A stretch of 64,000 nucleotides of DNA from an uncultured Planctomycetota bacterium. Its GTDB lineage: Bacteria > Planctomycetota > PLA2 > JAEUHO01. The notes beneath the pieces were generated by a model. It saw only the letters and a list, made by a program, of their open reading frames with translations, had not been told where the DNA came from and searched no databases. This document shows positions 45,492 to 64,000 of the stretch, in pieces. Numbering within the stretch: the stretch's first letter is position 1; each line of letters opens with the position of its first letter. Location: positions 224,001 to 288,000 of the forward strand of contig CAVVXN010000002.1 of assembly GCA_963752285.1 (NCBI GenBank), in the 5' to 3' direction. A program made the position numbers and the translations under genes.

Positions 45492-46346
45492 ATGCCCCAC
45501 GCCCGCGTGCACGTCGCGACGTACGAGCAGCTCCCGCACCTGAGGCGGGCGCTCCGTGGATTCCTCCGCCAGACGACCAACGACTTCACGCTGGTGTGCG
45601 CCGACGACGGGTCGGGCGAGGAGACCCGTCGGTTCCTCGATGCGTTCGCAGAGCAAGCGCGCGCGCGGGGCGTCGCCTTCGAGCACTGCTGGCACGAGGA
45701 CCGGGGCTTCCGCCGCGCAGGGATCCTGAACGCGGCCGTACGGGGCGCGACGGACGAGACGCTCTACCTCTTCAGCGACGGGGACTGCATCCCTCCGGCC
45801 ACCTTCGTCGAGCGGCACATCGAGGCGCACGCGCCGCTCTCCTTCCACGTGGGCGGCGCGATCCGCCTGTCGGAGGAGGTCACGGCCGCGCTCACCGTGG
45901 CGGACGTGGACTCGGGACGCTACGAGGCGCTGGCGACGCCGGCCGACCGGAAGGACCTCGCGCGCCGCGCTCGGAAGAGCCGTTGGGGGACGTGGCTCCG
46001 GCGCCGGCACCGGCCGAAGGTCCTCGGCCTGAACGTCGGGTTAGACCGCGCGCTCTTCGAGGACCTGAACGGGTTCGACGAGCGCTTCGAGGGCTACGGC
46101 TACGAGGACTCCGACCTGAGGGACCGCGCGATGCGCCACCGGCCGCGGCCGGTGGTTCGCGTCCTGTACGGGCGAAACGACGTGGTGCACCTGTGGCATC
46201 CGCGCGCGCCCGGAGGCCGGGCGCCGAACCGCGCGCTCTACGACTCGGATCGTCCCGTGCGGTGCGTGCGCGGGCTCGTCCAGGACGTCGCCCCGGACGC
46301 GACCGCGCCCCGGGTCAGCGATCCTCGTCCGCCGCGACCGGCATGA
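45492..46346 (+). CDS. GT2/GT7C glycosyltransferase
   Basis: ADDGS, WHEDRGFRRAGILN, FSDGDCIP, NGFDERFEGYGYEDSDL, HLWH. Confidence 0.9.
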   Translation: MPHARVHVATYEQLPHLRRALRGFLRQTTNDFTLVCADDGSGEETRRFLDAFAEQARARGVAFEHCWHEDRGFRRAGILNAAVRGATDETLYLFSDGDCIPPATFVERHIEAHAPLSFHVGGAIRLSEEVTAALTVADVDSGRYEALATPADRKDLARRARKSRWGTWLRRRHRPKVLGLNVGLDRALFEDLNGFDERFEGYGYEDSDLRDRAMRHRPRPVVRVLYGRNDVVHLWHPRAPGGRAPNRALYDSDRPVRCVRGLVQDVAPDATAPRVSDPRPPRPA

Positions 46347-48342
46347 CCCCGAGGTCCTGCATGCGCACGAGGTCGGCGTACGTGCCGCCCCGCGCGATCA
46401 GCTCCTCGTGCGTGCCGTGCTCGACGATGCGCCCGAGGTCGATCACCACGATCCGGTCGGCGTGTCGGATCGTCGAGAGCCGGTGGGCGACGACGAGCGT
46501 CGTCCGCCCCGCCTGCAGCCGTTCGAGCGCCTCCTGCACGAGCTTCTCGCTCGACGTGTCGAGGTTCGACGTCGCTTCGTCGAGCACCAGGATGTCGGGG
46601 TTCCGCACGAGCGCGCGCGCGATCGTGATCCGCTGCCGCTGACCGCCCGAGAGGCGTACGCCCGACTCGCCGACCTCCTCTTCGTAGCCGGCCGGCAGCG
46701 CCGAGATGAACTCGTGGATCTGCGCCGCGCGGGCCGCGTCGGCCATCTCCTCGGCGGTCGCGTCCGGCTTGCCCTGGCGGAGGTTCTCGCGGATGGTCGT
46801 GTGGAAGAGGAAGGGTGTCTGCGTCACGACCGCCGTCCGGGCGAGGAGCGACTGGCGCTTGAACTCCCGGGCGTCGTGGCCGTCGATCGTGATGCGTCCC
46901 TGGTCGGGGTCGTAGAAGCGGAGGAGGAGGTCGCAGAGCGTGGACTTCCCGCCGCCGGAGGGGCCGACCAGGGCGACGGTCGAGCCCTTCTCGATCTCGA
47001 ACGACACGTCGCGGATCACCGGCTGCCCCGGCACGTACGAGAACGAGACGTTCTCGAAGCGGATCGTCCCCGTGAGCCCGGGGAACGCGATCGCGCCGGG
47101 CCGGTCCGGGCTGCCCGGTGGGAGTGCCAGGTACTCCGTCGTGCGCTCGACGCTCGCCATGCGGTCCTGCAGGCTCGTGAACTGCTTCACGACCCGCTTC
47201 AACGGCTGGTAGAGGTTCCCGACGAGCACGAGGAAGATCATCAGCTCGCCGCGACCCACGGGGAGGAGTCCGCTCAGGAGCAGGAAACCGCCTCCCACCG
47301 CGAGGACCATCGCGAGGAAGTTGTTGATGAAGGCCGTCAGCGCGTCGGCAGCCGAGCGCGAGCGCTGGACCTTCAGCGCGCGGCGGGTCACCTCCTCGTC
47401 CGCCGCGCGGAACTCGCGGACGCGCCGGCCCTCGGTGCCGAATGCCTTGACCGTGCGGATGCCCGAGAAGATCTGCAGCAGCACCTCGACGCGCCGCGCG
47501 CTCTCCTGCTGGCGCCGGTGCGCCCGCTTGAGCGTCCGCCGCATCAGACGAAACATCGGGAGGAAGAACGGGAGGCCGAGGAGACACCCCAGCGTGAGCT
47601 GCCAAGAGAGCATGAAGAGGAACATCAGCGTCGCCGCGACGTTCAGCACGCCCTGGATCACGCCGTCGAGAAGGAGGTTCAACGCGGTGGCGTAGCCCTC
47701 GACGTCGCCGAGAACGCGCTGGACCAGCTCGCCCCGTCGTTGGCTGTCGTAGAATCCCACGGGTTGGTCGAGGAGCTTCGCGCAGAGCGCCTCGCGCACG
47801 TCCATCAGGATGTGCAGGCGCACCTTCTCCGCGACGTAGCTCTCGCCGTAGGAGGCGGCGCACATCACCACGATGAAGAACACGAAGAGGAGGAGGACGG
47901 TCAGGAGCGTCGCGTACTGGTCGAGTCGCTGCGCCCGGATCACCCGCGCCTCCTCCGCGGTCGCGCTCTTCGGGACGGACGCCTCCAACCACGCGGCCGG
48001 GATCAGCGCGCCCGTGAGGGAGTTCGCGAAGTCGGTGAACCGCTCGAGGCCGCCGGCCAGCGAGCCCGCGCGTCGCCGGAACTCGTTGACGTACCGCCCG
48101 GCCTCGTCCGTCCCGCCCGGGGCGGGGGGCTCCTCGGCCGGGGCGGTGGGCTCTTCGGGCGCCCCGACGGAGCCCGGGAGGAACACCCGGGTGACGATCG
48201 GGTAGAGGAGAAGGAAGCGGCCCGTGTTCGCGCCGGCCTGGAACGCCATGAGGGCGACGGAGAGGGCGATGCCGGTCCAGTGGGGGCGCGCGAAGGCGAG
48301 GGCCGGGAGGAGGCCCTTCACGGTCCTCACCCCCGGCGCCAT
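46315..48342 (-). CDS. MsbA-like ABC exporter (TMD+NBD)
   Basis: TM domain with a periplasmic insertion; GPSGGGKST, RFYDP, LSGGQRQR, LDEATSNLD, VAHRLSTI. Confidence 0.92.
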   Translation of the reverse strand: MAPGVRTVKGLLPALAFARPHWTGIALSVALMAFQAGANTGRFLLLYPIVTRVFLPGSVGAPEEPTAPAEEPPAPGGTDEAGRYVNEFRRRAGSLAGGLERFTDFANSLTGALIPAAWLEASVPKSATAEEARVIRAQRLDQYATLLTVLLLFVFFIVVMCAASYGESYVAEKVRLHILMDVREALCAKLLDQPVGFYDSQRRGELVQRVLGDVEGYATALNLLLDGVIQGVLNVAATLMFLFMLSWQLTLGCLLGLPFFLPMFRLMRRTLKRAHRRQQESARRVEVLLQIFSGIRTVKAFGTEGRRVREFRAADEEVTRRALKVQRSRSAADALTAFINNFLAMVLAVGGGFLLLSGLLPVGRGELMIFLVLVGNLYQPLKRVVKQFTSLQDRMASVERTTEYLALPPGSPDRPGAIAFPGLTGTIRFENVSFSYVPGQPVIRDVSFEIEKGSTVALVGPSGGGKSTLCDLLLRFYDPDQGRITIDGHDAREFKRQSLLARTAVVTQTPFLFHTTIRENLRQGKPDATAEEMADAARAAQIHEFISALPAGYEEEVGESGVRLSGGQRQRITIARALVRNPDILVLDEATSNLDTSSEKLVQEALERLQAGRTTLVVAHRLSTIRHADRIVVIDLGRIVEHGTHEELIARGGTYADLVRMQDLGVMPVAADEDR

Positions 48343-48523
48343 CTTGCCTTCCCGAGGGTCTCTGCCTCCCACGAAGCCTCCGTCCGGCCCGGGCCTGCCC
48401 GCCGGCGCATGAGTGTAGGCAAGACGCCCGGGATCCCCCCCTTTGGACCCTCGCGTCGAGTTGATTCCGGGCCGATTCGGGGGTATCCCTCGGCCTCTTT
48501 GCCCCCCGCATGCGGAGGAGTCC

Positions 48524-50554
48524 ATGTCGCATCGTTCCGAGGATGTTCGCACCGCCGCGTTCGTCGGCGCGGGGGGCTCCGGGAAGACGACTCTGGTCGA
48601 GGCGCTGCTCTCCGAGACGAACGCGACGAGCCGACGCGGCACGATCGCCGAGCGGAACACGGTCTCCGACTGGGACGAGGACGAGAAGGAGCGCCAGCAG
48701 AGCATCCTCGCGTCCGCCGTGCACCTCGCCTGGGAGGGGAAGCGGATCCACCTGATCGACACGCCGGGGGCCCTGGACTTCGTGGGCGAGCCCGTCACGG
48801 CGCTGGCCGCGGTCGAGACCGCGATCTTCTGCGTGCACGCGCACGACGGGGTCGGCGTGACGACCCGCCGCATCTACAAGACCGCCCGGCGCGCCGGCAT
48901 CCCCTGCTGTGTCCTCGTGACCCGGATCGAGTCCGAGAACGTGGACGGGGCCGCGATCCTCGACGAGATCCAGGCGGCCTTCGGGGAGGCGGCCGTGCCG
49001 CTGAACCTGCCCGACACGTTCGGCAGCGACGTCTCGCAGGTCGTGGACGTCTTCTCGCCGGACGTGCCGGCGCACCTCGAGGCGACGGCCGCTCGGTACC
49101 GCCAGCAGGCGACCGACCGGGTCGTCGAGGTCGACGAGGCGCTGCTCGAGAAGTACCTGGAGGAGGGGCGGATCGAGCCCGCGGAGCTCGAGGCGGCGTT
49201 CCCGCGCGCGCTCCGGGCGGGCAACATCGTGCCGGTGCTCCACGTCTCCGCCGAGAAGGGCGTGGGCATGCGCAAGCTCTTGACCTTCCTCGTCCACGAC
49301 GCGCCGCGGCCCGTGCCCACCGTGCTCAGGCCCGCGAAGAACGCAGAGGGCGAGCCGGTCGCTCTCGACGCCGCCGGTCCGTTCTCGGCGCAGGTGTGGA
49401 AGATCCAGGTGGACCCGCACGTCGGCAAGGTCGCCTTTCTTCGCGTCTGGACCGGCTCCGTCGCGAGCAAGACGGGGTTCACGGTCGCGCGGACGGGTCG
49501 TCACGAGCGCATCGGCGACCTCCTCGAGATCCAGGGGAAGGAGATGAAGCCCGTCGCGGAGGCCGTGGCCGGCGACCTCGTGGCCGTCGCGAAGATCGAC
49601 GACATCCGCATCGGCGACACGGTGCGCGACGAGGCGGCCGACTGGACGTTCGACCCGATCGCCACCCCGTACCCGAAGGTCACGGTGGCCGTCGAACCGA
49701 AGAACCGCGCCGACGAGGCGAAGGTGGGGCCCGAGCTCCACAAGCTCGCCGACGCGGACCCCACGTTCGTCTTCGAGCGCGAGGAGGGCACGGGCGAGCT
49801 CGTGGTTCGCGGGATGAGCAGCCTTCACGTGGACGTGGTCCTGCGTCGCCTCGCCCGCCGCAAGGTCGAGGTGACGACGCACGCCCCGCGCGTCCCGTAC
49901 CGCGAGACCATCGGGTCGCGCGGCGAGGCGCAGTACCGCCACAAGAAGCAGACCGGCGGTCGCGGACAGTTCGCCGAGGTCCACCTCCGCGTCGCCCCCC
50001 TGCCGCGCGGTGGCGACTTCGAGTTCGTGGACGAGGTCGTCGGCGGATCGATCCCGCGGCAGTACATCCCGGCCGTCGAGAAGGGTGTGCGCGAGACCCT
50101 TCCGCGGGGCGTGGTCGCGGGCTACCCGTTCACCGACGTGCAGGTAACCGTCTTCTTCGGCAAGGCGCACGACGTGGACAGCGACGAGTTCTCGTTCAAG
50201 CTCGCCGCGAGCCAGGCGTTCAAGCAGGCGGTCCTGGACGCGAACCCCGTCCTCCTCGAGCCGATCCTCGACGTGGAGATCGAGGTGCCCTCGCGGTTCA
50301 TGGGTGACATCTCGGGCGACCTGAACAGCCGGCGCGGACGCATCCTGGGGATGAACCAGGAGGGGGACATGGCCATCATCCACGCGCACGTCCCCCTGGC
50401 GGAGATGCTCCAGTACAGCACCGAGCTCCGGAGCATCACCGCCGGCGAGGGCGACTACACGTTCCACTTCGCGGACTACGAGCAGGTGCCGCCGCACATC
50501 GCCGAGCAGGTGGTGCAGCGCTCGAAGCGCGAGCTCGCCGAGGAGCGCGCTTGA
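48524..50554 (+). CDS. fusA: Elongation factor G paralog (EF-G2 type)
   Basis: GAGGSGKTT, DTPGALDF, PRVPYRETI, HKKQTGGRGQF, VVGGSIPRQYIPAVEKG, GDLNSRRG; divergent G motifs. Confidence 0.92.
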   Translation: MSHRSEDVRTAAFVGAGGSGKTTLVEALLSETNATSRRGTIAERNTVSDWDEDEKERQQSILASAVHLAWEGKRIHLIDTPGALDFVGEPVTALAAVETAIFCVHAHDGVGVTTRRIYKTARRAGIPCCVLVTRIESENVDGAAILDEIQAAFGEAAVPLNLPDTFGSDVSQVVDVFSPDVPAHLEATAARYRQQATDRVVEVDEALLEKYLEEGRIEPAELEAAFPRALRAGNIVPVLHVSAEKGVGMRKLLTFLVHDAPRPVPTVLRPAKNAEGEPVALDAAGPFSAQVWKIQVDPHVGKVAFLRVWTGSVASKTGFTVARTGRHERIGDLLEIQGKEMKPVAEAVAGDLVAVAKIDDIRIGDTVRDEAADWTFDPIATPYPKVTVAVEPKNRADEAKVGPELHKLADADPTFVFEREEGTGELVVRGMSSLHVDVVLRRLARRKVEVTTHAPRVPYRETIGSRGEAQYRHKKQTGGRGQFAEVHLRVAPLPRGGDFEFVDEVVGGSIPRQYIPAVEKGVRETLPRGVVAGYPFTDVQVTVFFGKAHDVDSDEFSFKLAASQAFKQAVLDANPVLLEPILDVEIEVPSRFMGDISGDLNSRRGRILGMNQEGDMAIIHAHVPLAEMLQYSTELRSITAGEGDYTFHFADYEQVPPHIAEQVVQRSKRELAEERA

Positions 50555-51891
50555 CGGACGAGATCTCCGCCGGCCGCGCCGCGCGCGCCGGCAGGGCTCT
50601 CGTCCTCGCGATCGGCCTGGTGGCGCTCCTCGCCGCGCGCTCCGGCGCGGGCGACGACGCGTCCGCGGACGTGCCGGGCGACGCGGCGCTCCGCGCGCGC
50701 GTCGTTCAGTGGCTCGACGACCTGCGGTCCGCGTCGTTCGAGACGAGGGAGACGGCGCGCGCGGGGCTCGAGCGGTACGCCCAGGCGGCCCCGGACCTCC
50801 TGGAGGCGCGGAAGGACGACCCCGACGCGGAGGTCCGCCGGACCGTTCGGACGATCCTGGAGCGGCTGCACGGCGCGGCGCCTCCCCCGCCGGCTCCGCA
50901 AGACGGCGACGTCGAGGGCGTAGGGCGCGTGACCATCTCGGCGAACGGTCCCCTCTCCGCCGTCCTCGAGCGCCTCGGCGCGCCGTACGGAGCGCGCGCG
51001 GTGGTGCCGGGCGACGCGGGCGGAACCGTCGTGGCCCTCGACCTCCACGACGTCCCCTTCTTCGAGGCGCTCGCGCAGGTCGCCGCCGTCGCGGACCTGG
51101 TCGCGCCGGGGCCCTTCGAGCCGGACGGGACGATCGCGCTCCGCGGGGCGGACGCGACACCCGCGGTCCCGAGCGCGGCGTCGGGGCCGCTCCGCGTCCG
51201 CGTCGAGGAGGTCACCTCGACGCGGACCCTCACGCGACCCGGCCGCCGGCACCACCTGGTCCTCGACCTCGACTGGATGCCCGCGGTCTCGGTGAGCGTC
51301 TGGCGCACGCCGACCGACCTCCAGGCCGTGGACCCCGACGGACGCCCCGTCCCGCCGGGCGCGGCGATGCGGAGCCGGACGTCCTGGGGCGCCGGCGTCG
51401 GGGCGACGTCGGGACGGTTCGCGATCGACCTCGACCCCGCCGCGGACGACCGGGTGGAGCGCCTCGCGCGCCTGGAGTTCGCCCTGCCCGTCCGTCTCGC
51501 CGTCGGGCGCCACGACGTCCACTTCGACCGGCCGACCGACGACCTGCCCCGCACGCTCCCCCCGGGATCGGGCCCGGACACGGAGGGCGCCGTCACCCTG
51601 CGTTCGCTCGCGCGGGCCCCCGGGAACGGGCCCTGGGTGGCGGAGGTGGGCATCCGCCTCGCCGGCGAGACCGCGGAGCGCACGCTCTCGCTCTGGCTCG
51701 ACCGGGACGACGGCACCTCCGTGCCGCTCACCGCCGGCACCCGGTTCCCCTCGGCGGACGGCTGGCTCTCGATCGTGGCCCGCGCATGGGGCCGATCGGA
51801 GGCCCTGCCGGTCCGACTGCGCGCGACCTGGCTCACGAGCGAGGTCGAGGGGAACGCCCGGTTCCGGCTGGAGGACGTGCCGCTGCGGTGA
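50551..51891 (+). CDS. Exported hypothetical protein (N-terminal HEAT-like helices, STN-like segment, beta-rich C-terminus)
   Basis: TTGA overlap with the EF-G stop; signal peptide; DDLRSASFETRETA...DDPDAEVRR. Confidence 0.7.
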   Translation: MTDEISAGRAARAGRALVLAIGLVALLAARSGAGDDASADVPGDAALRARVVQWLDDLRSASFETRETARAGLERYAQAAPDLLEARKDDPDAEVRRTVRTILERLHGAAPPPPAPQDGDVEGVGRVTISANGPLSAVLERLGAPYGARAVVPGDAGGTVVALDLHDVPFFEALAQVAAVADLVAPGPFEPDGTIALRGADATPAVPSAASGPLRVRVEEVTSTRTLTRPGRRHHLVLDLDWMPAVSVSVWRTPTDLQAVDPDGRPVPPGAAMRSRTSWGAGVGATSGRFAIDLDPAADDRVERLARLEFALPVRLAVGRHDVHFDRPTDDLPRTLPPGSGPDTEGAVTLRSLARAPGNGPWVAEVGIRLAGETAERTLSLWLDRDDGTSVPLTAGTRFPSADGWLSIVARAWGRSEALPVRLRATWLTSEVEGNARFRLEDVPLR

Positions 51892-51950
51892 CGGCCGCGC
51901 CCGCGGCCCTCCGAGCCGGCACAGGCCCTTCCCTCCTCCGGCCCGCGACG

Positions 51951-51956
51951 TATCCT
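51951..51956 (+). promoter_or_regulatory. -10 element (TATCCT) 6 nt before GTG; probable leaderless promoter of the stator-MCE operon
   Basis: Same TANNNT-N6-start geometry as several other genes in this window. Confidence 0.55.
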
Positions 51957-51962
51957 CCCCGC

Positions 51963-52331
51963 GTGGAACGTCCCGCGCCGCCCTCTCTCGCGCCCGGACG
52001 CTCGGCGCTCCCGCGGTTCCTGCTGGTGGAGCGTCGCCTGGACGAGGAAGTCCGGGCGGCCGAGGAGGCCGCGGCCCGCGCGATCGAGGCCGCCGAGGTC
52101 GAGGCGAGGCGCGTCCGAAGCGAGGGCGAGGCGCGCCTCAAGGCCGTCGTGCTCGACGCGGAGACCCAGGCGCGGCGCGAGGTCGAGGCCCGTGCGCGCG
52201 ACCGCGTCAGCGACGCGCGCGTCCGCGTCGGCCGCTGGGTCGAGTCCGCCGAGGCGGCGAGCGCGGACGCCGTGGAGCGGGCGCTCGAGCTCCTCACCTC
52301 GGACCCGATCGAGGAGGGGGGCGGGGGGTGA
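51963..52331 (+). CDS. V/A-type ATPase subunit G/H-like helical protein
   Basis: 122 aa, Ala/Glu/Arg coiled coil (EEVRAAEEAAARAIEAAEVEARR...AVERALELL); sits directly before a subunit I-like gene. Confidence 0.6.
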   Translation: MERPAPPSLAPGRSALPRFLLVERRLDEEVRAAEEAAARAIEAAEVEARRVRSEGEARLKAVVLDAETQARREVEARARDRVSDARVRVGRWVESAEAASADAVERALELLTSDPIEEGGGG

Positions 52332-54208
52332 TGCGCCCGGCCTTCCTCCAGGTCGAGATCCTGGGGCCGCGCGCGACCCTCGACCGGTGGCTCGAGGGCG
52401 TCCAGGAGCACGGGCGCTGCCACGTGGTGGACGCCCTGCTCGGTCTGGAGGGCGAGCCGGGGATCAGCCGCCCCACGCCGACGCGCGACGAGAACGACGC
52501 CGCGACGATGCGGAGCGAGGCGCTCCGTCGGCTCCGTGCCGTGGAGCGCGTCCTCCCTCGCACCGCGCCGGACGGGAACGGGTCGGCGCCGCGCCCCTCG
52601 TTCTCGGTCGGCGCCTCGGGCCAGGGCCTCGCCGACGTCGAGCGCGACGCGGCCGCGGCGGGGTCCGTGGGCGGGAAGATCCTCGCCGCGCTCGAGGCCG
52701 GCCGCGACGCGGACCGCAGCGTGGAAGCGGCGGAGGCGCGCCAGCTGCTCCTGTCAGCGCTCCCGCCGGCGCGGTCCGATCCGCTCGGCGTCGCGTATGC
52801 ATTTTCCGCGGAGCGTCCCGTGCCGCGCCGCCGGCTCGAGCGGTTCACGCGCGACGGCGCCTCGGTGTGGCGCGCGGTCGGTGAGCGGCAGGCGGTCGTC
52901 GTGCTCGACGTGCCGTCCGGCCAGGAGGACCGCTTCGGACAGGAGCTCGCGCGCCTCGGAGGCCGGAAGGTCGAGTGGGAGCCGGACCTGCTCCAGGGCG
53001 GTCGGGCCGCCGCGCTCGCGCGCGCGACCGAGGCGCTCGCGCACGCGAAGGCGCGCGACCGCGAGGCGCTCGGCGCGCTCCGCCGCGTCGTGGACGCCGA
53101 GGGCCCTCGCGCGCGCCGGTTCCTCGACGCGCTCGAGGACGCCGAGGCACGCGCGCGCCTCCGCGACCGCCTCGCGACGACGGAGCAGGTGACGGCGCTC
53201 CGCGCGTGGGTCCCGTCCGAGGACGTGGACGCGCTCGAGACGCGGCTCCGGGTACGGGTCGGCCCGGAGGTGGTCGTGCGCGCGCTCGGCGACGGTACGG
53301 ACGCGCCTGCGGCGCCGCGGCGCGTGGCGCCGGTCCCCCTGGCCGCACTCCAGGGGGTCGGAGCGCGGCGCTTCGGCGAGGTCACGGCGCCCGCGCTGCT
53401 GGCGCTCGCCGTGCCCATCGCCTTCGGGCTCGCCTGGGCCGACCTCGCGGGCGGGCTGCTCCTCCTCCTCGGTGGCGCGTTCCTCCAGATCGGCGCGGTG
53501 CCCGGCTCGCCGCGGCGCGACACGTCGCTCCTGGCGGAGGTCGCGGGTCTCGGCGCGCTCCTCGGGGGCCTGCTCGCGGGGCACGGCTTCGGCGCCCTCG
53601 GCGCGTCGTGGTTCGGGGTCGGCTGGGGCTTCCTCCCCGGGGAGGGCGGCTGGGCGGAGTGGCCCTCGGCCCTCCGGTTCACGTGGATCGTCGGCGCGGC
53701 GGCGGCCGCGGGCGCGGCGTGGGGGCTCGGCGTCGCGAGCGGTCGGGCGCGGGGCGGCGGACCCGCCGGCGCGCGCGCGGGTCTCGGCGTCGCGCTGCCG
53801 CTGGTCGTGGTCGCCGGCGCGGCCGCGGCGACGCTCCCCGCCGGGACGGTCCTGCACGCGCTGTGGTGGACCGCGCCGGTCGCGGCGATCGCGCTGCTCG
53901 TCGTGGCGGGGCTCCGCGAGGGCGGAGGTCGGCTGGTCCTCGACCTGGCCGCCACGGTCCGTCTCGTCGCGGTCCCGCTCTTCGCGCTCGAGGTCGCGTC
54001 CCGGGTCTTCGCGCGCCTCGCGGCCGACCCGTCGGCGGCGGGCTGGATCGTCGGCGTGCCTCTCCTCGCCGTCGCGACGCTGGCCGCGGTCGTGGACCCG
54101 GCGCACGTGGCGATGGGCGTGCCCTACGATCTCTCCCTCGGAGGTCGTGCGCTCGCCGAGCCGTACGCGCCGTTCGCGAGGCGTGGCCGGGACGGAGGTG
54201 AGCGATGA
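52328..54208 (+). CDS. Divergent V/A-type ATPase subunit I (a)-like protein
   Basis: N-terminal VEILGP...VQEHGRCHV, LRAWVPSED (cf. GWVP), FGEVTAP...PIAFGLAWADLAGG (cf. YxEIDP...FFGxMFGDxGYG), ATVRLVAV (cf. SYxRLxA), terminal YAPF. Confidence 0.78.
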   Translation: MMRPAFLQVEILGPRATLDRWLEGVQEHGRCHVVDALLGLEGEPGISRPTPTRDENDAATMRSEALRRLRAVERVLPRTAPDGNGSAPRPSFSVGASGQGLADVERDAAAAGSVGGKILAALEAGRDADRSVEAAEARQLLLSALPPARSDPLGVAYAFSAERPVPRRRLERFTRDGASVWRAVGERQAVVVLDVPSGQEDRFGQELARLGGRKVEWEPDLLQGGRAAALARATEALAHAKARDREALGALRRVVDAEGPRARRFLDALEDAEARARLRDRLATTEQVTALRAWVPSEDVDALETRLRVRVGPEVVVRALGDGTDAPAAPRRVAPVPLAALQGVGARRFGEVTAPALLALAVPIAFGLAWADLAGGLLLLLGGAFLQIGAVPGSPRRDTSLLAEVAGLGALLGGLLAGHGFGALGASWFGVGWGFLPGEGGWAEWPSALRFTWIVGAAAAAGAAWGLGVASGRARGGGPAGARAGLGVALPLVVVAGAAAATLPAGTVLHALWWTAPVAAIALLVVAGLREGGGRLVLDLAATVRLVAVPLFALEVASRVFARLAADPSAAGWIVGVPLLAVATLAAVVDPAHVAMGVPYDLSLGGRALAEPYAPFARRGRDGGER

Positions 54209-54858
54209 GCACCGCTCCCGACCTCCAACCGCTCCTCGACGCGGTGATCGAGCACGCGCACGCACGATGCCGCCATGCCGAGGACCGCGCCGCGGCGAGG
54301 CGGCGCGAGCTCCTCCTCGCCGCGGAGGACCACGTGCATGCGCTCGAGGAGGCGGCGCGCGAGATCGGCCGTACGCGCGGCGCGTCCGCGGACCTCGCCG
54401 CCTCGCGCGAGGCGCGGGCCGAGGTCGAGAAGGTCGCGAGCGAGGCCTTCGACCGTCTTCTCGAACGCTTCGAGCGTCGCGTGAAGCTGGCCCTCGAGGC
54501 CCTGCCTTCGAGCCCGAGGTACGGCGACGCGATCGGGGGGTGGGCGCGCGCGGCTGCCAGGCAGATCGATGGGCCCGTGGAGGTGCACACGGCGCCGCGT
54601 GACCGCGAGGCGGTGTACGAGGCGCTGCTCCAGGCCGGCGTGGAGGACTTCCGCGTGCGCGCCGAGCGGCGGATCGGGTGCGGGTTCGTCGTCCGCGACA
54701 TGGACGGGCGCACGGTCGCCGACCTGCGGCCCGAGGCCCTGGTCGCGTCCCGGAGGCCGGACCTCCGCCGCCTTCTCGAGGCCGTCGTGCCCCGCCCGAC
54801 AGGACTGGTCCCCGTCGATCCCGAGCCCGCCACGCCGGCCTCCGGCGGTCGCGCGTGA
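54205..54858 (+). CDS. V/A-type ATPase subunit E-like protein
   Basis: N-terminal long helix (LQPLLDAVIEHAHA...), EVHTAPRD, C-terminal IGCGFVVRDMDGRTVADLRPEAL. Confidence 0.75.
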   Translation: MSTAPDLQPLLDAVIEHAHARCRHAEDRAAARRRELLLAAEDHVHALEEAAREIGRTRGASADLAASREARAEVEKVASEAFDRLLERFERRVKLALEALPSSPRYGDAIGGWARAAARQIDGPVEVHTAPRDREAVYEALLQAGVEDFRVRAERRIGCGFVVRDMDGRTVADLRPEALVASRRPDLRRLLEAVVPRPTGLVPVDPEPATPASGGRA

Positions 54859-55892
54859 CGGCGGGACGCGTCCGCCGTCTCCGCCGCCTCCTCGGCGCCG
54901 GCCTCCTCGGGGCGCTCCTCCTGGGGCTCGTCCTCCTGCTCGCCCGACCCGGCGTCCACGGGCCCCTCGCGCGGGCGTTCCAGACGATCGCCCGGGACGC
55001 CTTCGGCGACGACGCAGGCGACCTGGGGCTTTTGCTCGACGACACCTCGGGACTCGGGCTCGGCGACCCCGTCTTCCGCGCAGACCGGCCCTCCGGGCTC
55101 GAGCCGGCGGGCTGGGTGGCCTCCATCGGGGCGGGGCGGGTCACGATCCGGCTCGCGCCGGGGGAGCGCCTCGACGGGGCGTGGCGGCTCGTCCGCCTCG
55201 GCGCGCCGCGCGGCCTCGCGGACGCCTGGCGCCTCGCGGTCCCGCCGGAGGCGGGCCGCGCGCTCGCCGCGCGGGCGAAGGAGGAGCTTTCGGGACTGCT
55301 CCAGGAGAGCGTCCTCCCCGAGCTCCGCCGGCGACTGCCCGAGTTCCTCTCGCGGGTGGACCCTCGCCACGATCCGCGCGCCCGCGCGGTGCTCGACGGG
55401 GTCGGCGCCGCGGTGGCGGAGCGCCTTCGGCCTCTGGCCGACGAGCTCGTGCGCTACGTGGGACGCGACCTCGAGAAGCGGTTCGGGTTCCTCGACCGCG
55501 TCTCGCTCCTCTTGAAGTACCTCCGCGGCGACACCGACGCACTCCGAGGCGAGCTGGTCCCGGCGGCGACCGAGAGCGCAACGCGGTGGTGGGCGGCGCG
55601 CCGGGACGCGGTCCTGACGGCCGTAGGCGAGGCGCTGCTCGCCGAGGCGAAGCCCGTGGGGACGTGGCTCGTGGAGGCGGTGCTGCCCGCCGCGCGGGAC
55701 ACCCTCCTCCGGCCCGTCCTCGACGCCCAGGCGCCGGCCATCGAGCGTTCGGCCCAGCGGGTGCTCGACGACGCCACGCGGCTCGTGGTGGAGGCGCCGG
55801 AGGGCGGTTTCCGCGTCCGCTTCGCGGCGGCGGTCCGAAGCCGGCTCCTCGAGAAGCGAGGTCCGCTGCTCCTCCTGGAGCGCGCGCCGTGA
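54855..55892 (+). CDS. MCE/MlaD-like membrane-anchored protein with long helical C-terminus
   Basis: N-terminal TM, LDDTSGLGLGDPVF...AGWVASI (MCE-like pattern); upstream of mlaF-mlaE. Confidence 0.6.
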   Translation: MTAGRVRRLRRLLGAGLLGALLLGLVLLLARPGVHGPLARAFQTIARDAFGDDAGDLGLLLDDTSGLGLGDPVFRADRPSGLEPAGWVASIGAGRVTIRLAPGERLDGAWRLVRLGAPRGLADAWRLAVPPEAGRALAARAKEELSGLLQESVLPELRRRLPEFLSRVDPRHDPRARAVLDGVGAAVAERLRPLADELVRYVGRDLEKRFGFLDRVSLLLKYLRGDTDALRGELVPAATESATRWWAARRDAVLTAVGEALLAEAKPVGTWLVEAVLPAARDTLLRPVLDAQAPAIERSAQRVLDDATRLVVEAPEGGFRVRFAAAVRSRLLEKRGPLLLLERAP

Positions 55893-57433
55893 GCGGAGCG
55901 CCGCAGCCGCTCCTCGAGGTCGAAGGGCTCGACGTCGTGGAGCGCGGCCGCCGGCTCGTCCTGCGGTCCTCGTTCGTCGTTCGCGAGGGCCAACGCGCGC
56001 TGCTGGTGGGACCGTCCGGCGCGGGCAAGTCGCTCTTCGTGGACCTTCTCCTCGGCTTCGCGGGACCCGAGACGCCGGAGCTCGTCGTGTCCGGGTCGAT
56101 CCGCCTCGACGGACACGAACGGCTCGGCGCGCCCCCCGACCCGTCGCTCGGCGCCGTGTTCCAGATCCACCGTCCGGGGCTCTTCGACGACCTGAGCGTC
56201 ACGCAGAACCTCGCGTTCGGCGCGTCGGACGCCGAGCGGCAGCGGGAGGCGGCGGCGGCGTTCCATCTCGGCGCGCTCGAACGACCCGTCGCGACGCTCT
56301 CCGGCGGCGAGCAGGTCCGGACCTCCCTGGTCCGGACGTTGCTCCACGGCGCCGAGATCCTCGTCCTCGACGAGCCCACGACCGGGCTCGACGAGAGCGC
56401 GAGGCGCCAGGTGGTGGACGCGATCGCGAAGGCCCACCGCCGCTTGACGCTCGTGGTCACGCACGACCTCGACGCGTTCGAGGGCTTCGCCGACGTCGTG
56501 CTCCTCCTCGACGCGGAGAGCCGGACGATCCGTCCCCTCGACCGCGGCGGGGAGGGCTGGGCCGCGGTCCGAGCCGCGCTCTCCCGTCGGGCGCCGCCTC
56601 CCCCGGCCGCACCCGACGGGACGCCGCGCCGGGCCACGCGCCTCCTCCGCGCCGGCGCGCGGGTCGCCGAGGGCGCGACCGAAGTCGCCGCCGACGCGCT
56701 CGTGGCGCTCCTCGCGCCGTTCGCGTGGCTGGCCGCGTTCCACCCGCTCCACGGGCCGCGCGTGCGCGGCGCGCTCCGCCGGGATCTCGCCCCGGGCGTC
56801 GCCGTCTTCGTCGGGCTGGCCTCCATCCTGATCGGCGTCACCGCGACCCACTTCCTCTTCGAACGGCTCCCGCAGCGCCCGTACGCGGAGGCGCTCTTCC
56901 TCGACGACCTCCTCGCCGGGCTCGGCGTGGTGCAGGTCCGGGTCGTGGTGCCCCTGCTCGTGTCGATCCTCCTCGCCGCGAAGCTCGGCGCCTCGACCGC
57001 CGCGTGGCTCGGTCACATGAGCCGGACGCGACAGATCGACGCCCTGCGCCTGCTCCACGTCCCGGTCCGCCGTCACCTGCTGCTGCCCGCCGCGGGGGGG
57101 CAACTCGCCGCGTCCCTCGTCCACACCACGATCGCCCTCGCGGGCGTGTTCCTGACCTCGCTCGTCGTGTTCCTGTGGGACCACCCCGGCTGGTCCGCCC
57201 GGTACGCGTGGCGCGCGTGGTTCGAGGAGGTGCACGGCCTGGACCTCGCGTGGGTGGCCGCGAAGGTCGGGCTCTCCGCCGTCGCCGTGGCCGCGATCGC
57301 CTTCCGGGCGGGCGTCACGCCGAAGCGGCGCCCGGAGGAGATCGTGTCCGCGATCCACGCCACCCTCTTGGGCGCGTTGCTCGCGGTTCTCGCGGTGCAC
57401 GCGGCGTTCGCGTTCCTGGAGTTCGCACGCTGA
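55889..57433 (+). CDS. Fused ABC ATPase (MlaF-like) and MlaE-family permease
   Basis: GPSGAGKS, VFQ, LSGGE, LVLDEPTTGLD, VTHD; then PLLVSILLAAKLGASTAAWLGHMSRTRQIDALRLL, an MlaE signature. Confidence 0.85.
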   Translation: MSGAPQPLLEVEGLDVVERGRRLVLRSSFVVREGQRALLVGPSGAGKSLFVDLLLGFAGPETPELVVSGSIRLDGHERLGAPPDPSLGAVFQIHRPGLFDDLSVTQNLAFGASDAERQREAAAAFHLGALERPVATLSGGEQVRTSLVRTLLHGAEILVLDEPTTGLDESARRQVVDAIAKAHRRLTLVVTHDLDAFEGFADVVLLLDAESRTIRPLDRGGEGWAAVRAALSRRAPPPPAAPDGTPRRATRLLRAGARVAEGATEVAADALVALLAPFAWLAAFHPLHGPRVRGALRRDLAPGVAVFVGLASILIGVTATHFLFERLPQRPYAEALFLDDLLAGLGVVQVRVVVPLLVSILLAAKLGASTAAWLGHMSRTRQIDALRLLHVPVRRHLLLPAAGGQLAASLVHTTIALAGVFLTSLVVFLWDHPGWSARYAWRAWFEEVHGLDLAWVAAKVGLSAVAVAAIAFRAGVTPKRRPEEIVSAIHATLLGALLAVLAVHAAFAFLEFAR

Positions 57434-57469
57434 GGAGGCGCGTCCTGGGGGCGGGAGCGCGCCGGCGGG

Positions 57470-58348
57470 TCAGCGTTCGTCGTCCTGATCGATGAAGAGG
57501 ACCTTCAGGTCGTGCTTGTGGTCTCGGACCATCAGGTTCCAGTCGTCCCACCGGGTCAGGTGCTGGCCCGTCAGCTCGTTCAAGGCGGTGGGGATGACGC
57601 CCGAGAGCTGCCCCCAGCGGTCGGTCCCCGAGCTCCCGCTCGCCGGCGGGATGTACTGGCCCGTGTTCGGGTCGTCCTTGCCGGGGCGCGCCCGACCGGG
57701 CTTGTCCTTCACGAGCGTGCCCACGAGGTCCTCGACGATCTTCTTGCGCAGACGCCACGACGCGTGGCGAAACTTCCCGAGCGCCTGCGCGGCGAGCGCG
57801 GCGATCCGGAAGTTCTCCGAGTCCTCGACGACCTTGAGGAGAGGCAGCACGAGCGAGTCGTCGCCGATCGCCCCCGCGGCGTCGATCGCGGTCGAGAGCC
57901 ACGGATCGACCTCGTCGTCTTGCTTCTTCACCGGCTCGATGAACGACTTCACGTACCGCGCCCCGTCGGGATGACCCATGTCGCCGAGGGCCTTGAGACC
58001 CGCCTTCCTCACGTCCGCGTCGCGCTCGCGCTTCAGAAGCAGGCCGACGGCCTTCACGAGGTGCTCGCGGGCCGCCTTCACGTCGGGGTGGCCCGCTGCC
58101 TCCTTGTAGAGCGCGACGGCGAGTTCCATGTCCTTCTGGAGCGCGGGCACCTGGTCGGCCTTCGCGTGGTCGTCGATCTGGTCCTCGTGCGCGGAGACCT
58201 TCTCCATGATGGGGGGCGATGCGGCGGGCGGATCGTCCTTCGCGATCGACGCCCGGGCCGCGATCGTGAAGATGAACAGCACGACGATCGACGCTGCGAT
58301 CCGCGCACGAACGCGGACGGGCACGACACGAGCCGTCGATGAACGCAT
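57470..58348 (-). CDS. Exported HEAT-repeat protein
   Basis: AAAGGGGAG RBS, signal peptide, ADVRKAGLKALGDMG, IAALAAQALGK, ALNELTGQ...WDDW. Confidence 0.8.
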   Translation of the reverse strand: MRSSTARVVPVRVRARIAASIVVLFIFTIAARASIAKDDPPAASPPIMEKVSAHEDQIDDHAKADQVPALQKDMELAVALYKEAAGHPDVKAAREHLVKAVGLLLKRERDADVRKAGLKALGDMGHPDGARYVKSFIEPVKKQDDEVDPWLSTAIDAAGAIGDDSLVLPLLKVVEDSENFRIAALAAQALGKFRHASWRLRKKIVEDLVGTLVKDKPGRARPGKDDPNTGQYIPPASGSSGTDRWGQLSGVIPTALNELTGQHLTRWDDWNLMVRDHKHDLKVLFIDQDDER

Positions 58349-58505
58349 CGGACTCCCCTTTCGACGAGACGAACCACCACGGGGAGGACGCCGTCACGTA
58401 CGCGCGTTCCCCGCGCGGCGCGGCTCGTGCCCCCGTCCCCGGCCCTCGGGCGCCCTTCGGCCCGCGGTCCCCGGGGCGGCATCCTCCGCCTGGCTCGAGC
58501 ACCTA

Positions 58506-58536
58506 TTCAGACGTCATCGGCCGGCGGATGGTTTGC
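58506..58536 (-). promoter_or_regulatory. Possible ECF-sigma promoter (GCAAAC-N17-CGTCTGAA) for the HEAT gene
   Basis: AAC-N17-CGT geometry on the minus strand; pattern only. Confidence 0.4.
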
Positions 58537-58562
58537 CACGTTCTCGAAAGGGGACGTAAGGA

Positions 58563-58608
58563 CCACGGGACGAGACTTTAGACTAGAGCCTAAAGTCTCG
58601 GCCCGTGG
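58563..58608. repeat. Long inverted repeat (terminator, operator or RNA stem)
   Basis: CCACGGG-A-CGAGACTTTAG-ACTAGAGC-CTAAAGTCTCG-G-CCCGTGG: 18 paired positions, one mismatch, about 45 nt downstream of the vWA gene stop. Confidence 0.8.

Positions 58609-63245: not shown

Positions 63246-64000
<755 letters not shown>

Follow-up and report, generated by a model that had tools for sequence, protein, structure and literature searches.

The V/A-type ATPase is known structurally from Thermus thermophilus, and it is in rotary ATPases that subunits I/a, E and G have their known place. A stator relative has been put to another use in the flagellar and type III secretion export systems. There the peripheral-stalk-like protein FliH/SctL links an ATPase to membrane machinery other than a rotary ATPase; FliI, which FliH tethers, is a hexamer of the rotary type. 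Among transporters with MCE domains, mycobacterial Mce1 and Escherichia coli LetAB and PqiABC have extra membrane partners (YrbE, LetA/PqiA and LucB) that are unrelated to V-ATPase subunits. Here we describe a block of five genes in a 64-kb stretch of DNA (G000:C2:224001-288000, hereafter the window) from a 4.64-Mb genome that is 89% complete in 5 contigs and, like the related named records, is a metagenome-assembled genome of Planctomycetota. In this block, genes for homologues of V-type subunits I and E and a candidate subunit G directly precede the genes of an Mla/MCE-type ATP-binding cassette (ABC) transporter.

One planctomycetal family keeps only the stator parts of a V-type ATPase, in an operon with a lipid ABC transporter, and this suggests that the stator parts now serve the transporter. 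A first-pass annotation of this DNA had pointed in the same direction and had added that no described system was known; a literature search, which covered sources outside the subscription journals, likewise found none that links V-type I, E or G subunits with Mla or MCE proteins.

The stator-type genes

The block (51963-57433, + strand) consists of five open reading frames joined by four consecutive 4-nt start/stop overlaps, which are read in the sequence as GTGA at 52328, ATGA at 54205, GTGA at 54855 and GTGA at 55889, just as first annotated; the fifth gene ends at TGA 57431-57433. The window has a GC content of 70-79%, and GC at the third codon position of genes 2-5 is 0.90-0.95 versus 0.50-0.58 at position 2. 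The frame of gene 1 shows a coding pattern in a sliding frame plot. Gene 1 starts at GTG 51963, which is the first start codon past the upstream stop at 51891 and is equivalent to the residue at which its orthologues begin.

The second gene (52328..54208, +; alternative ATG at 52331) encodes a 626-aa protein with a predicted cytoplasmic N-terminal domain and a C-terminal multi-helix membrane domain. Its predicted identity as a homologue of V/A-ATPase subunit I/a is confirmed by profile and fold comparisons, which agree. The protein matches the NCBIfam V-type subunit I model (E value 6.7e-16), and a profile of six I-like sequences finds T. thermophilus subunit I in the PDB (E value 7.8e-6). The top 39 rows of a Foldseek search with the AlphaFold2 (AF2) model are all V-ATPase a/I chains (best E value 1.4e-8), with TM-scores of only 0.15-0.32 and from a model of mediocre quality (predicted local distance difference test score, pLDDT, 64). 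When the I-like profile was run against 1.84 billion representatives, it found 426 proteins at E<=0.001, divided by a large fall in score into a close tier and a second tier at about 90 bits and below. Many second-tier matches are near end-to-end (about positions 4-590 of 627), and the Pfam family PF01496 is carried by 12 of the 12 second-tier proteins tested versus none of 10 close-tier proteins. The I-like protein itself has no Pfam match at E<=1, and PF01496 finds nothing in the source genome at the same limit. In a FastTree phylogeny, which carries long-branch warnings and does not resolve the sister group, the I-like family is monophyletic on a long stem.

The I-like protein is collinear with canonical subunit I over nearly its whole length and keeps the GD..G motif of transmembrane helix 1 (TM1); the residues of the proton path are another matter. 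R545 in TM7 aligns with the invariant Arg of 13 canonical I subunits, the essential residue that faces the c-ring, and 12/13 family members have it. Six residues upstream of this Arg, the canonical Asn has become Asp or Glu (D/E539) in 13/13, the conserved Arg of TM8 (in the motif ...RLHYVEF) has become Gly in 13/13, and the TM8 Glu has been replaced by L, V, I or A in 13/13, with an Asp at the adjoining column in 11/13. An arginine pair after TM1 (RR396-397) is specific to the family and is found in all 13 members. With the TM7 Arg kept, an acidic residue gained and the TM8 Arg and Glu lost, the proton path of the I-like protein has probably been remodelled, and what is left may be a relic held in a salt bridge or else an element for proton sensing or gating.

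Among the proteins found with the I-like profile is P0116 (1347 aa), in which an N-terminal region resembling subunit I is joined to thrombospondin type 3 repeats and pentapeptide repeats. The I-like profile aligns with its positions 5-578, and its PF01496 score (26.7 bits) is under the cut-off. It may be another subunit I homologue outside a rotary ATPase.

Gene 3 (54205..54858, +) encodes a 217-aa protein with a long N-terminal helix and a C-terminal globular head. A profile alignment (hhalign) of ten E-like sequences with eight bona fide Planctomycetota E subunits spans 180 columns, including the head motif, with a probability of 96.7% and an E value of 3.8e-10, and this confirms the predicted homology to V/A-ATPase subunit E. 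A PDB profile search puts T. thermophilus subunit E in the top four places, with weak E values of 0.54-2.3; Pfam gives no match (the score for PF01991 is not reached).

Gene 1 (51963..52331, +) encodes 122 amino acids, in which a conserved, P-rich N-terminal motif (GRSALPxF) is followed by one long A/E/R-rich helix. Its size and its position directly before the I gene fit the canonical operon. The match to Pfam V-ATPase_G_2 (PF16999; E value 9e-4, 20.3 bits) misses the cut-off of 28, and the bona fide G of a canonical Planctomycetota V/A-ATPase operon (locus L080) is likewise under the cut-off at 25.8 bits, so that the Pfam test for G has little power. In a PDB profile search the best match is a V-type subunit G (E value 0.068), and G subunits make up 8 of the 17 matches listed. 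The gene may thus encode a V-type subunit G, a weakly supported assignment that draws on weak, non-specific coiled-coil similarity.

The transporter genes

Gene 5 (55889..57433, +) encodes a 514-aa protein (FE) with an N-terminal ABC ATPase, a linker of about 70 aa and a C-terminal MlaE permease. Both Pfam domains are above their cut-offs (ABC_tran, E value 2.9e-20, 73.7 bits; MlaE, PF02405, E value 8.9e-18, 65.1 bits against a cut-off of 22.5), and the motifs GPSGxGKS, SGGE, DEPTxGLD and HD are intact and invariant in nine orthologues. The predicted MlaF-MlaE fusion is thereby confirmed.

Gene 4 (54855..55892, +) encodes a 345-aa protein, designated X here, with an N-terminal membrane anchor, an MCE-like beta domain and a helical insertion. 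In the AF2 model (pLDDT 81) the beta domain is small, comprising about residues 57-115 and a last strand at 338-343, and before the last strand comes an insertion of about 210 aa, made of amphipathic helices punctuated by prolines. Foldseek gives MlaD as the top matches (E value 0.2, probability 0.82-0.85). VIA-align finds LetB (Z 7.7), Mce1 (Z 7.7), LetAB (Z 7.4) and the MlaD core (Z 7.1), scores that lie within the range the tool calls common, and five different MCE entries recur among its highest-ranking matches. X superimposes on the MlaD core with a root-mean-square deviation of 2.7 A over 74 residues, at 22% identity. The insertion region (about residues 150-270) matches an apolipoprotein A-IV profile (E value 4e-4). 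X has no Pfam MlaD (PF02470) match, and a search of the ESM Atlas gave only Planctomycetota clusters (best score 0.79) and nothing usable. The modelled fold, but not the sequence, thus points to a putative anchored MCE-like protein.

The first-pass annotation had named these five proteins G/H-like, I-like, E-like, MCE-like and an MlaF-MlaE fusion. Its calls hold for genes 2, 3 and 5. For X the fold agrees and the Pfam family does not; for gene 1 the helical character, size and place agree, and the specific resemblance to G is slight, as discussed below.

None of the five operon proteins has a STAS/MlaB domain by Pfam. The source genome also contains a canonical Mla-like locus (L051; G000:C5:1411000-1419000, minus strand), with a STAS protein, an MlaE (238 bits), a 501-aa protein and a phospholipase D-type (cardiolipin synthase-like) enzyme. 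The 501-aa protein, which adjoins the canonical MlaE, has no MCE Pfam match (PF02470 is absent genome-wide at E<=0.01), and BLASTP finds no significant similarity between it and X.

Absence of rotor and head genes

The canonical operon in L080 has the order G-I-K-E-C-F-A-B-D. The order in the window, G-I-E, is the canonical order minus K, with everything past E replaced, so that the first-pass description (K missing, C/F/A/B/D replaced by lipid-transport genes) is borne out by direct comparison. The source genome has no V-type A/B, no D and no second c subunit; its four PF00006 matches are two F-type alpha/beta subunits and two Rho proteins, and its one c subunit adjoins the F-type a, b and delta genes. 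Across a sample of 29 genomes of the GTDB family, 11 of them at least 90% complete, neither the V-type A-specific domain PF16886 nor subunit D (PF01813, above cut-off) was found (0/29 each), in searches that do detect known V-type genomes. Nor is there a c-subunit-like gene between the flanking gene up446 and G in the other loci, where thioredoxin-like genes are found instead.

The genome carries a complete F-type ATP synthase. Its genes had been placed about 5 kb from the block; they do lie downstream, with the nearest F-type alpha/beta match starting at window position 63615, about 6.2 kb past gene 5. A chimeric F/V synthase that lacks F-type a, b and delta was considered and rejected, since all three genes are present. 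The two Rho paralogues (G000:C5:176821-178134 and C5:1853605-1855245) each combine Rho_RNA_bind with ATP-synt_ab.

Conservation of the block

The I-like gene is present in 17 of the 29 family genomes, and the E-like gene is present in the same 17, which span 11 of 16 genera. X is found in these 17 and in one more genome (G249), whose contig begins only 538 nt away from it. In a sample of the phylum, strong I-like matches were confined to the family (10/16 other genomes, versus 0/6 in the sister family). The flanking gene up446 is found in 28/29 family genomes, and in a genome without the block the ABC exporter, EF-G, up446 and thioredoxin-like genes still stand in order. The nearly universal flank, set against the matched patterns of I, E and X, argues that the block is gained or lost as a whole.

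The order G-I-E-X-FE is complete in 8 of 10 related loci, and the other two are cut by contig ends; all 10 loci keep the order and the link to the mce/mla genes. Gene junctions range from -11 to +86 nt, and in most loci neighbouring genes overlap or stand a few nt apart; this range leaves out the junction between genes 2 and 3 in L035 (1217 nt, an artefact of an in-frame TGA) and a 3242-nt insertion in L036. Two of the eight complete loci carry foreign genes exactly between E-like and X, amounting to 3.2 kb in G167 and 1.9 kb in G401. The G167 insertion (L036:5130-8269, -) encodes two secreted proteins (509 and 537 aa) which by eye resemble trypsin/HtrA-type proteases, and the G401 insertion (L054:8611-10056, +) a 481-aa protein with an SGGLDS motif.

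The proteins are under selection. Crude dN/dS values (nonsynonymous over synonymous substitution rates) for G, I, E, X and FE are 0.18-0.35 in the closest pairs, rough values because dS is near saturation at 90% or more GC at third positions; by the same crude measure EF-G gives 0.27-0.45 in more distant pairs. Together with intact reading frames and invariant motifs, these values speak for non-neutral evolution.

Conservation also bears on the start of transcription. Base 51951 is the first base of a TATCCT hexamer, not a gene start; the hexamer and its 6-nt spacer (51951..51962, +) abut the G-like start as the putative -10 element of a leaderless transcript. The first-pass annotation had assigned the operon its own -10 box on this basis. 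Taken alone, the occurrence of one TATCCT, counting both strands of the 64-kb window, is not above chance (2.25 expected), and a consensus scan of 50300-58600 found 0 promoter-like sites, a result that is uninformative at 75% GC. However, all nine further loci have TATCCT (five loci), TATGCT, TATTCT or TACGCT 6-8 nt before the G-like start, and the intergenic DNA around the box in those loci is otherwise unconserved. A box kept in 9/9 loci amid unconserved DNA argues for a conserved -10 element and a leaderless transcript. Behind this TATCCT-N6-GTG arrangement, the five genes would form one leaderless, translationally coupled operon.

A proposed assembly and its alternatives

We put the probability at roughly 0.55 that the five proteins form a single inner-membrane assembly, consisting of an MCE/ABC lipid transporter and an accessory module derived from a V-type stator. 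The first module would be an Mla/MCE-type transporter, presumably of lipids, in which the MlaF-MlaE fusion presumably acts as a homodimer. X would be its MCE-like subunit, anchored in the membrane and facing the periplasm, and the long insertion of amphipathic helices in X would serve to bind lipid or to channel it. The second would be an accessory descended from the stator of a V/A-type ATPase, with the G-like, I and E genes left and K, C, F, A, B and D gone. The membrane domain of the I-like protein would lie beside the transmembrane helices of MlaE and X, and its cytoplasmic N-domain would hold one or more E-G coiled-coil stalks toward a cytoplasmic partner. The MlaF ATPase domain is the candidate partner, because it is the sole cytoplasmic domain otherwise encoded in the operon. 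Such a stator module would brace, position or regulate the transporter, and would rotate nothing. The first-pass proposal of a scaffold or energiser thus stands as far as co-inheritance and operon structure carry it, while contact and coupling between the modules stay conditional. Of the refuting conditions set in that annotation (a complementary locus elsewhere, no conserved link to mce/mla genes in relatives, neutral evolution, and profiles that do not confirm V-ATPase homology), each was checked and none refuted the proposal.

A more elaborate version gives protons a part. The stator would have been exapted such that the I-like protein, with its TM7 Arg and new acidic neighbour, conducts or senses protons beside MlaFE/MCE, and the E-G stalks link this protein mechanically to the ABC ATPase domains. 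Through these parts of rotary-ATPase descent, and without a rotor, the proton-motive force would brace, gate or help to energise lipid transport. We regard this version as tentative, and its chances as well short of even.

Several observations weigh against a single assembly. The E/G stalk is of full length (180 columns align to canonical E), and an ABC ATPase domain lies much closer to the membrane than such a stalk would reach, so that the geometry of a contact between the stalk and that domain is not obvious. The G-like protein aligns with three bona fide G subunits at an hhalign probability of only 2.9%, and scores higher on the N-terminal helix of E (18.9%, E value 0.0012). The near-saturation of dS, mentioned above, blunts the evidence for selection. 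Single lineages show damage or reduction: in G201 (L035:151-2055) the I-like gene has an in-frame TGA at codon 228, past which the alignment runs on to the end; in G401 (L054:11082-12625) FE is spread over two frames; and in G391, which belongs to the genus of the window genome, an intact I-like protein of 444 aa (L037:9301-10632, +) is without about residues 127-241, probably the distal lobe of the cytoplasmic domain, and 495-536, with the TM7-TM8 region kept. Sequencing error may account for any of the three, and the changes in G201 and G401 may otherwise mark incipient pseudogenes. A complex prediction with E-like, G-like and FE residues 1-300, in which FE was the partner, scored 0.00 (mark 0.32); it was run without controls and gives no verdict.

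The alternative that survives best is that the block holds two independent units, which are only co-transcribed and co-inherited. The X-FE pair would then be self-sufficient, and I, E and G would have an unrelated role: they might leak protons, act as a sensor, or tether to the membrane some other cytoplasmic partner whose gene lies outside the operon. Azospirillum, Magnetococcales and other Planctomycetota have more distant MlaF-MlaE fusions, and within 9 kb on each side of these there is no match to the I, E, G or X profiles. This tells against the single assembly in that the transporter core can evidently work without the stator module. These fusions do have an unannotated upstream gene of 368-473 aa that is partly similar to X (hhalign probability 72%, E value 3.3e-5, 64 columns). 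From these comparisons X-FE looks like an older two-gene unit, and the stator trio like an addition to it. The insertions in G167 and G401 show in addition that the E/X junction can break. Nevertheless, the patterns of I, E and X coincide in 28/29 genomes, with the exception at a contig edge; the junctions are tight in most loci; and the operon encodes no other cytoplasmic partner for the stalk. We therefore find the independent-units explanation doubtful, and prefer the single assembly.

It is improbable that I, E and G act as a V-type stator for an F-type rotor and head, in a hybrid ATP synthase with the TM7 Arg working on the F-type c-ring. Retention of that Arg in 12/13 family members would fit, as would the F-type nature of the genome's sole c subunit and sole alpha/beta head, whose genes are found some 6-11 kb downstream. 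The F-type operon, however, has its own a, b and delta genes, and in 13/13 two residues of the canonical proton path, Arg and Glu in TM8, have been replaced. Eleven family genomes are without I-like and E-like, ten of these also without X, and a hybrid synthase leaves the strict co-inheritance with X unexplained.

About as improbable is a decaying V/A-ATPase operon whose remnant lies by chance beside a transporter, one of two alternatives offered in the first-pass annotation. The loss of K, C, F, A, B and D would be expected of decay, and the in-frame TGA in G201, the shortened I-like protein in G391 and the long stem branch of the I-like family point the same way. Yet most of the 17 genomes, which cover 11/16 genera, have the three genes complete and undamaged, with family-specific invariant residues (RR396-397 and D/E539, each 13/13), dN/dS below 1 and a conserved promoter-like box, and the block is lost whole rather than piecemeal. 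Decay is therefore a weak explanation, though it may have set in within the single lineages just named. The other alternative, a split V-ATPase with K-C-F-A-B-D genes elsewhere, could shelter only in the unsequenced part of an 89% complete, 5-contig genome, and the searches of that genome (no V-type A/B, second c subunit or PF01496 match) and of the 29 family genomes bring it close to refutation.

Just these stator parts, kept as a set under selection with neither rotor nor catalytic head in the genome, would be a clear case in which the stator of a molecular machine is reused elsewhere; operon structure and co-inheritance tie them to an MCE/Mla-type ABC transporter. It would bear on the modular evolution of rotary ATPases, on what subunit a/I can do without a c-ring, and on the anchoring and regulation of MCE transporters in diderms, here Planctomycetota with unusual envelopes. 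With five proteins, the system is a small and concrete target.

Flanking genes

Upstream of the block lie an EF-G paralogue with all five EF-G domains (48443-50554, +), flanked by a divergent ABC exporter (46315-48873, -) and by up446 (50551-51891, +), which encodes a 446-aa secreted protein with a HEAT-like N-terminus and the C-terminal sequence ...VPLR. The EF-G-up446 pair recurs in 7/9 plus 2/3 related loci, and the exporter stands by EF-G in the window, L052 and L054. We considered up446 as part of the system and rejected it, because it is found in 28/29 genomes, including block-less ones, and because in several loci other genes, amounting to 1-3 kb, stand between it and G. Downstream, the operon is followed by a convergent gene for a HEAT-repeat protein (57470-58348, -); the scan of 50300-58600 showed no terminator-like hairpin between the two, and is again uninformative at 75% GC.

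In several related genomes, one or two secreted thioredoxin-like genes lie between up446 and the G-like gene; the window itself has none in that position. Each of these genes has, just past a beta-strand, an in-frame TGA that is conserved and set in the context U-G-x-C (...HKDF-U-GRC... and ...HKDK-U-GGC...), as in L029:11393-12364 (-) and L033:5161-6081 (+), and similar split pairs of reading frames are found at L029:12337-13269 and L032:11305-12288. They are probably UxxC selenoproteins, judging from this sequence context.

Comparison with known systems

The closest relative of the stator half is the canonical V/A-ATPase operon, as found in L080. The two share a G-sized helical protein directly before a subunit I homologue of about 630 aa, and an E homologue after it. 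They differ in that the window block has no c-ring gene between I and E, that no C/d, F, A, B or D gene is found in the 29 family genomes, and that the G-like, I-like and E-like proteins of the window all fall under the Pfam gathering score. In contrast to subunit I of the V/A-ATPase, the I-like protein has its TM8 Arg and Glu replaced and an acidic residue six positions before the TM7 Arg.

The transporter half is closest to MlaFEDB of E. coli and other proteobacteria. Both have an MlaE-family permease with an ABC ATPase, and in both a gene for an anchored MCE-like protein, a putative one in the window, directly adjoins. In the window, however, MlaF and MlaE are fused in one chain and the operon has no STAS/MlaB gene; the MCE-like domain of X is interrupted in the model by the helical insertion of about 210 aa and goes unmatched by Pfam MlaD; and three V-type stator genes are attached to the transporter. 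Mycobacterial Mce1 and E. coli LetAB and PqiABC, which span the envelope, resemble the window system in that their MCE domains occur together with long helical regions and further partners in the membrane, and Mce1, LetB and LetAB are among the best structural matches of X (see above). Their helical regions follow the MCE domain, whereas that of X is inserted into it.

FliH/SctL offers a precedent for a stator-related protein that works on a membrane machine of another kind, and the bona fide E of L080 itself has a weak match to the FliH Pfam family (E value 6.8e-4). The window system differs from the export machines in two respects: its operon encodes no ATPase other than an ABC domain, and it includes a homologue of subunit I/a.

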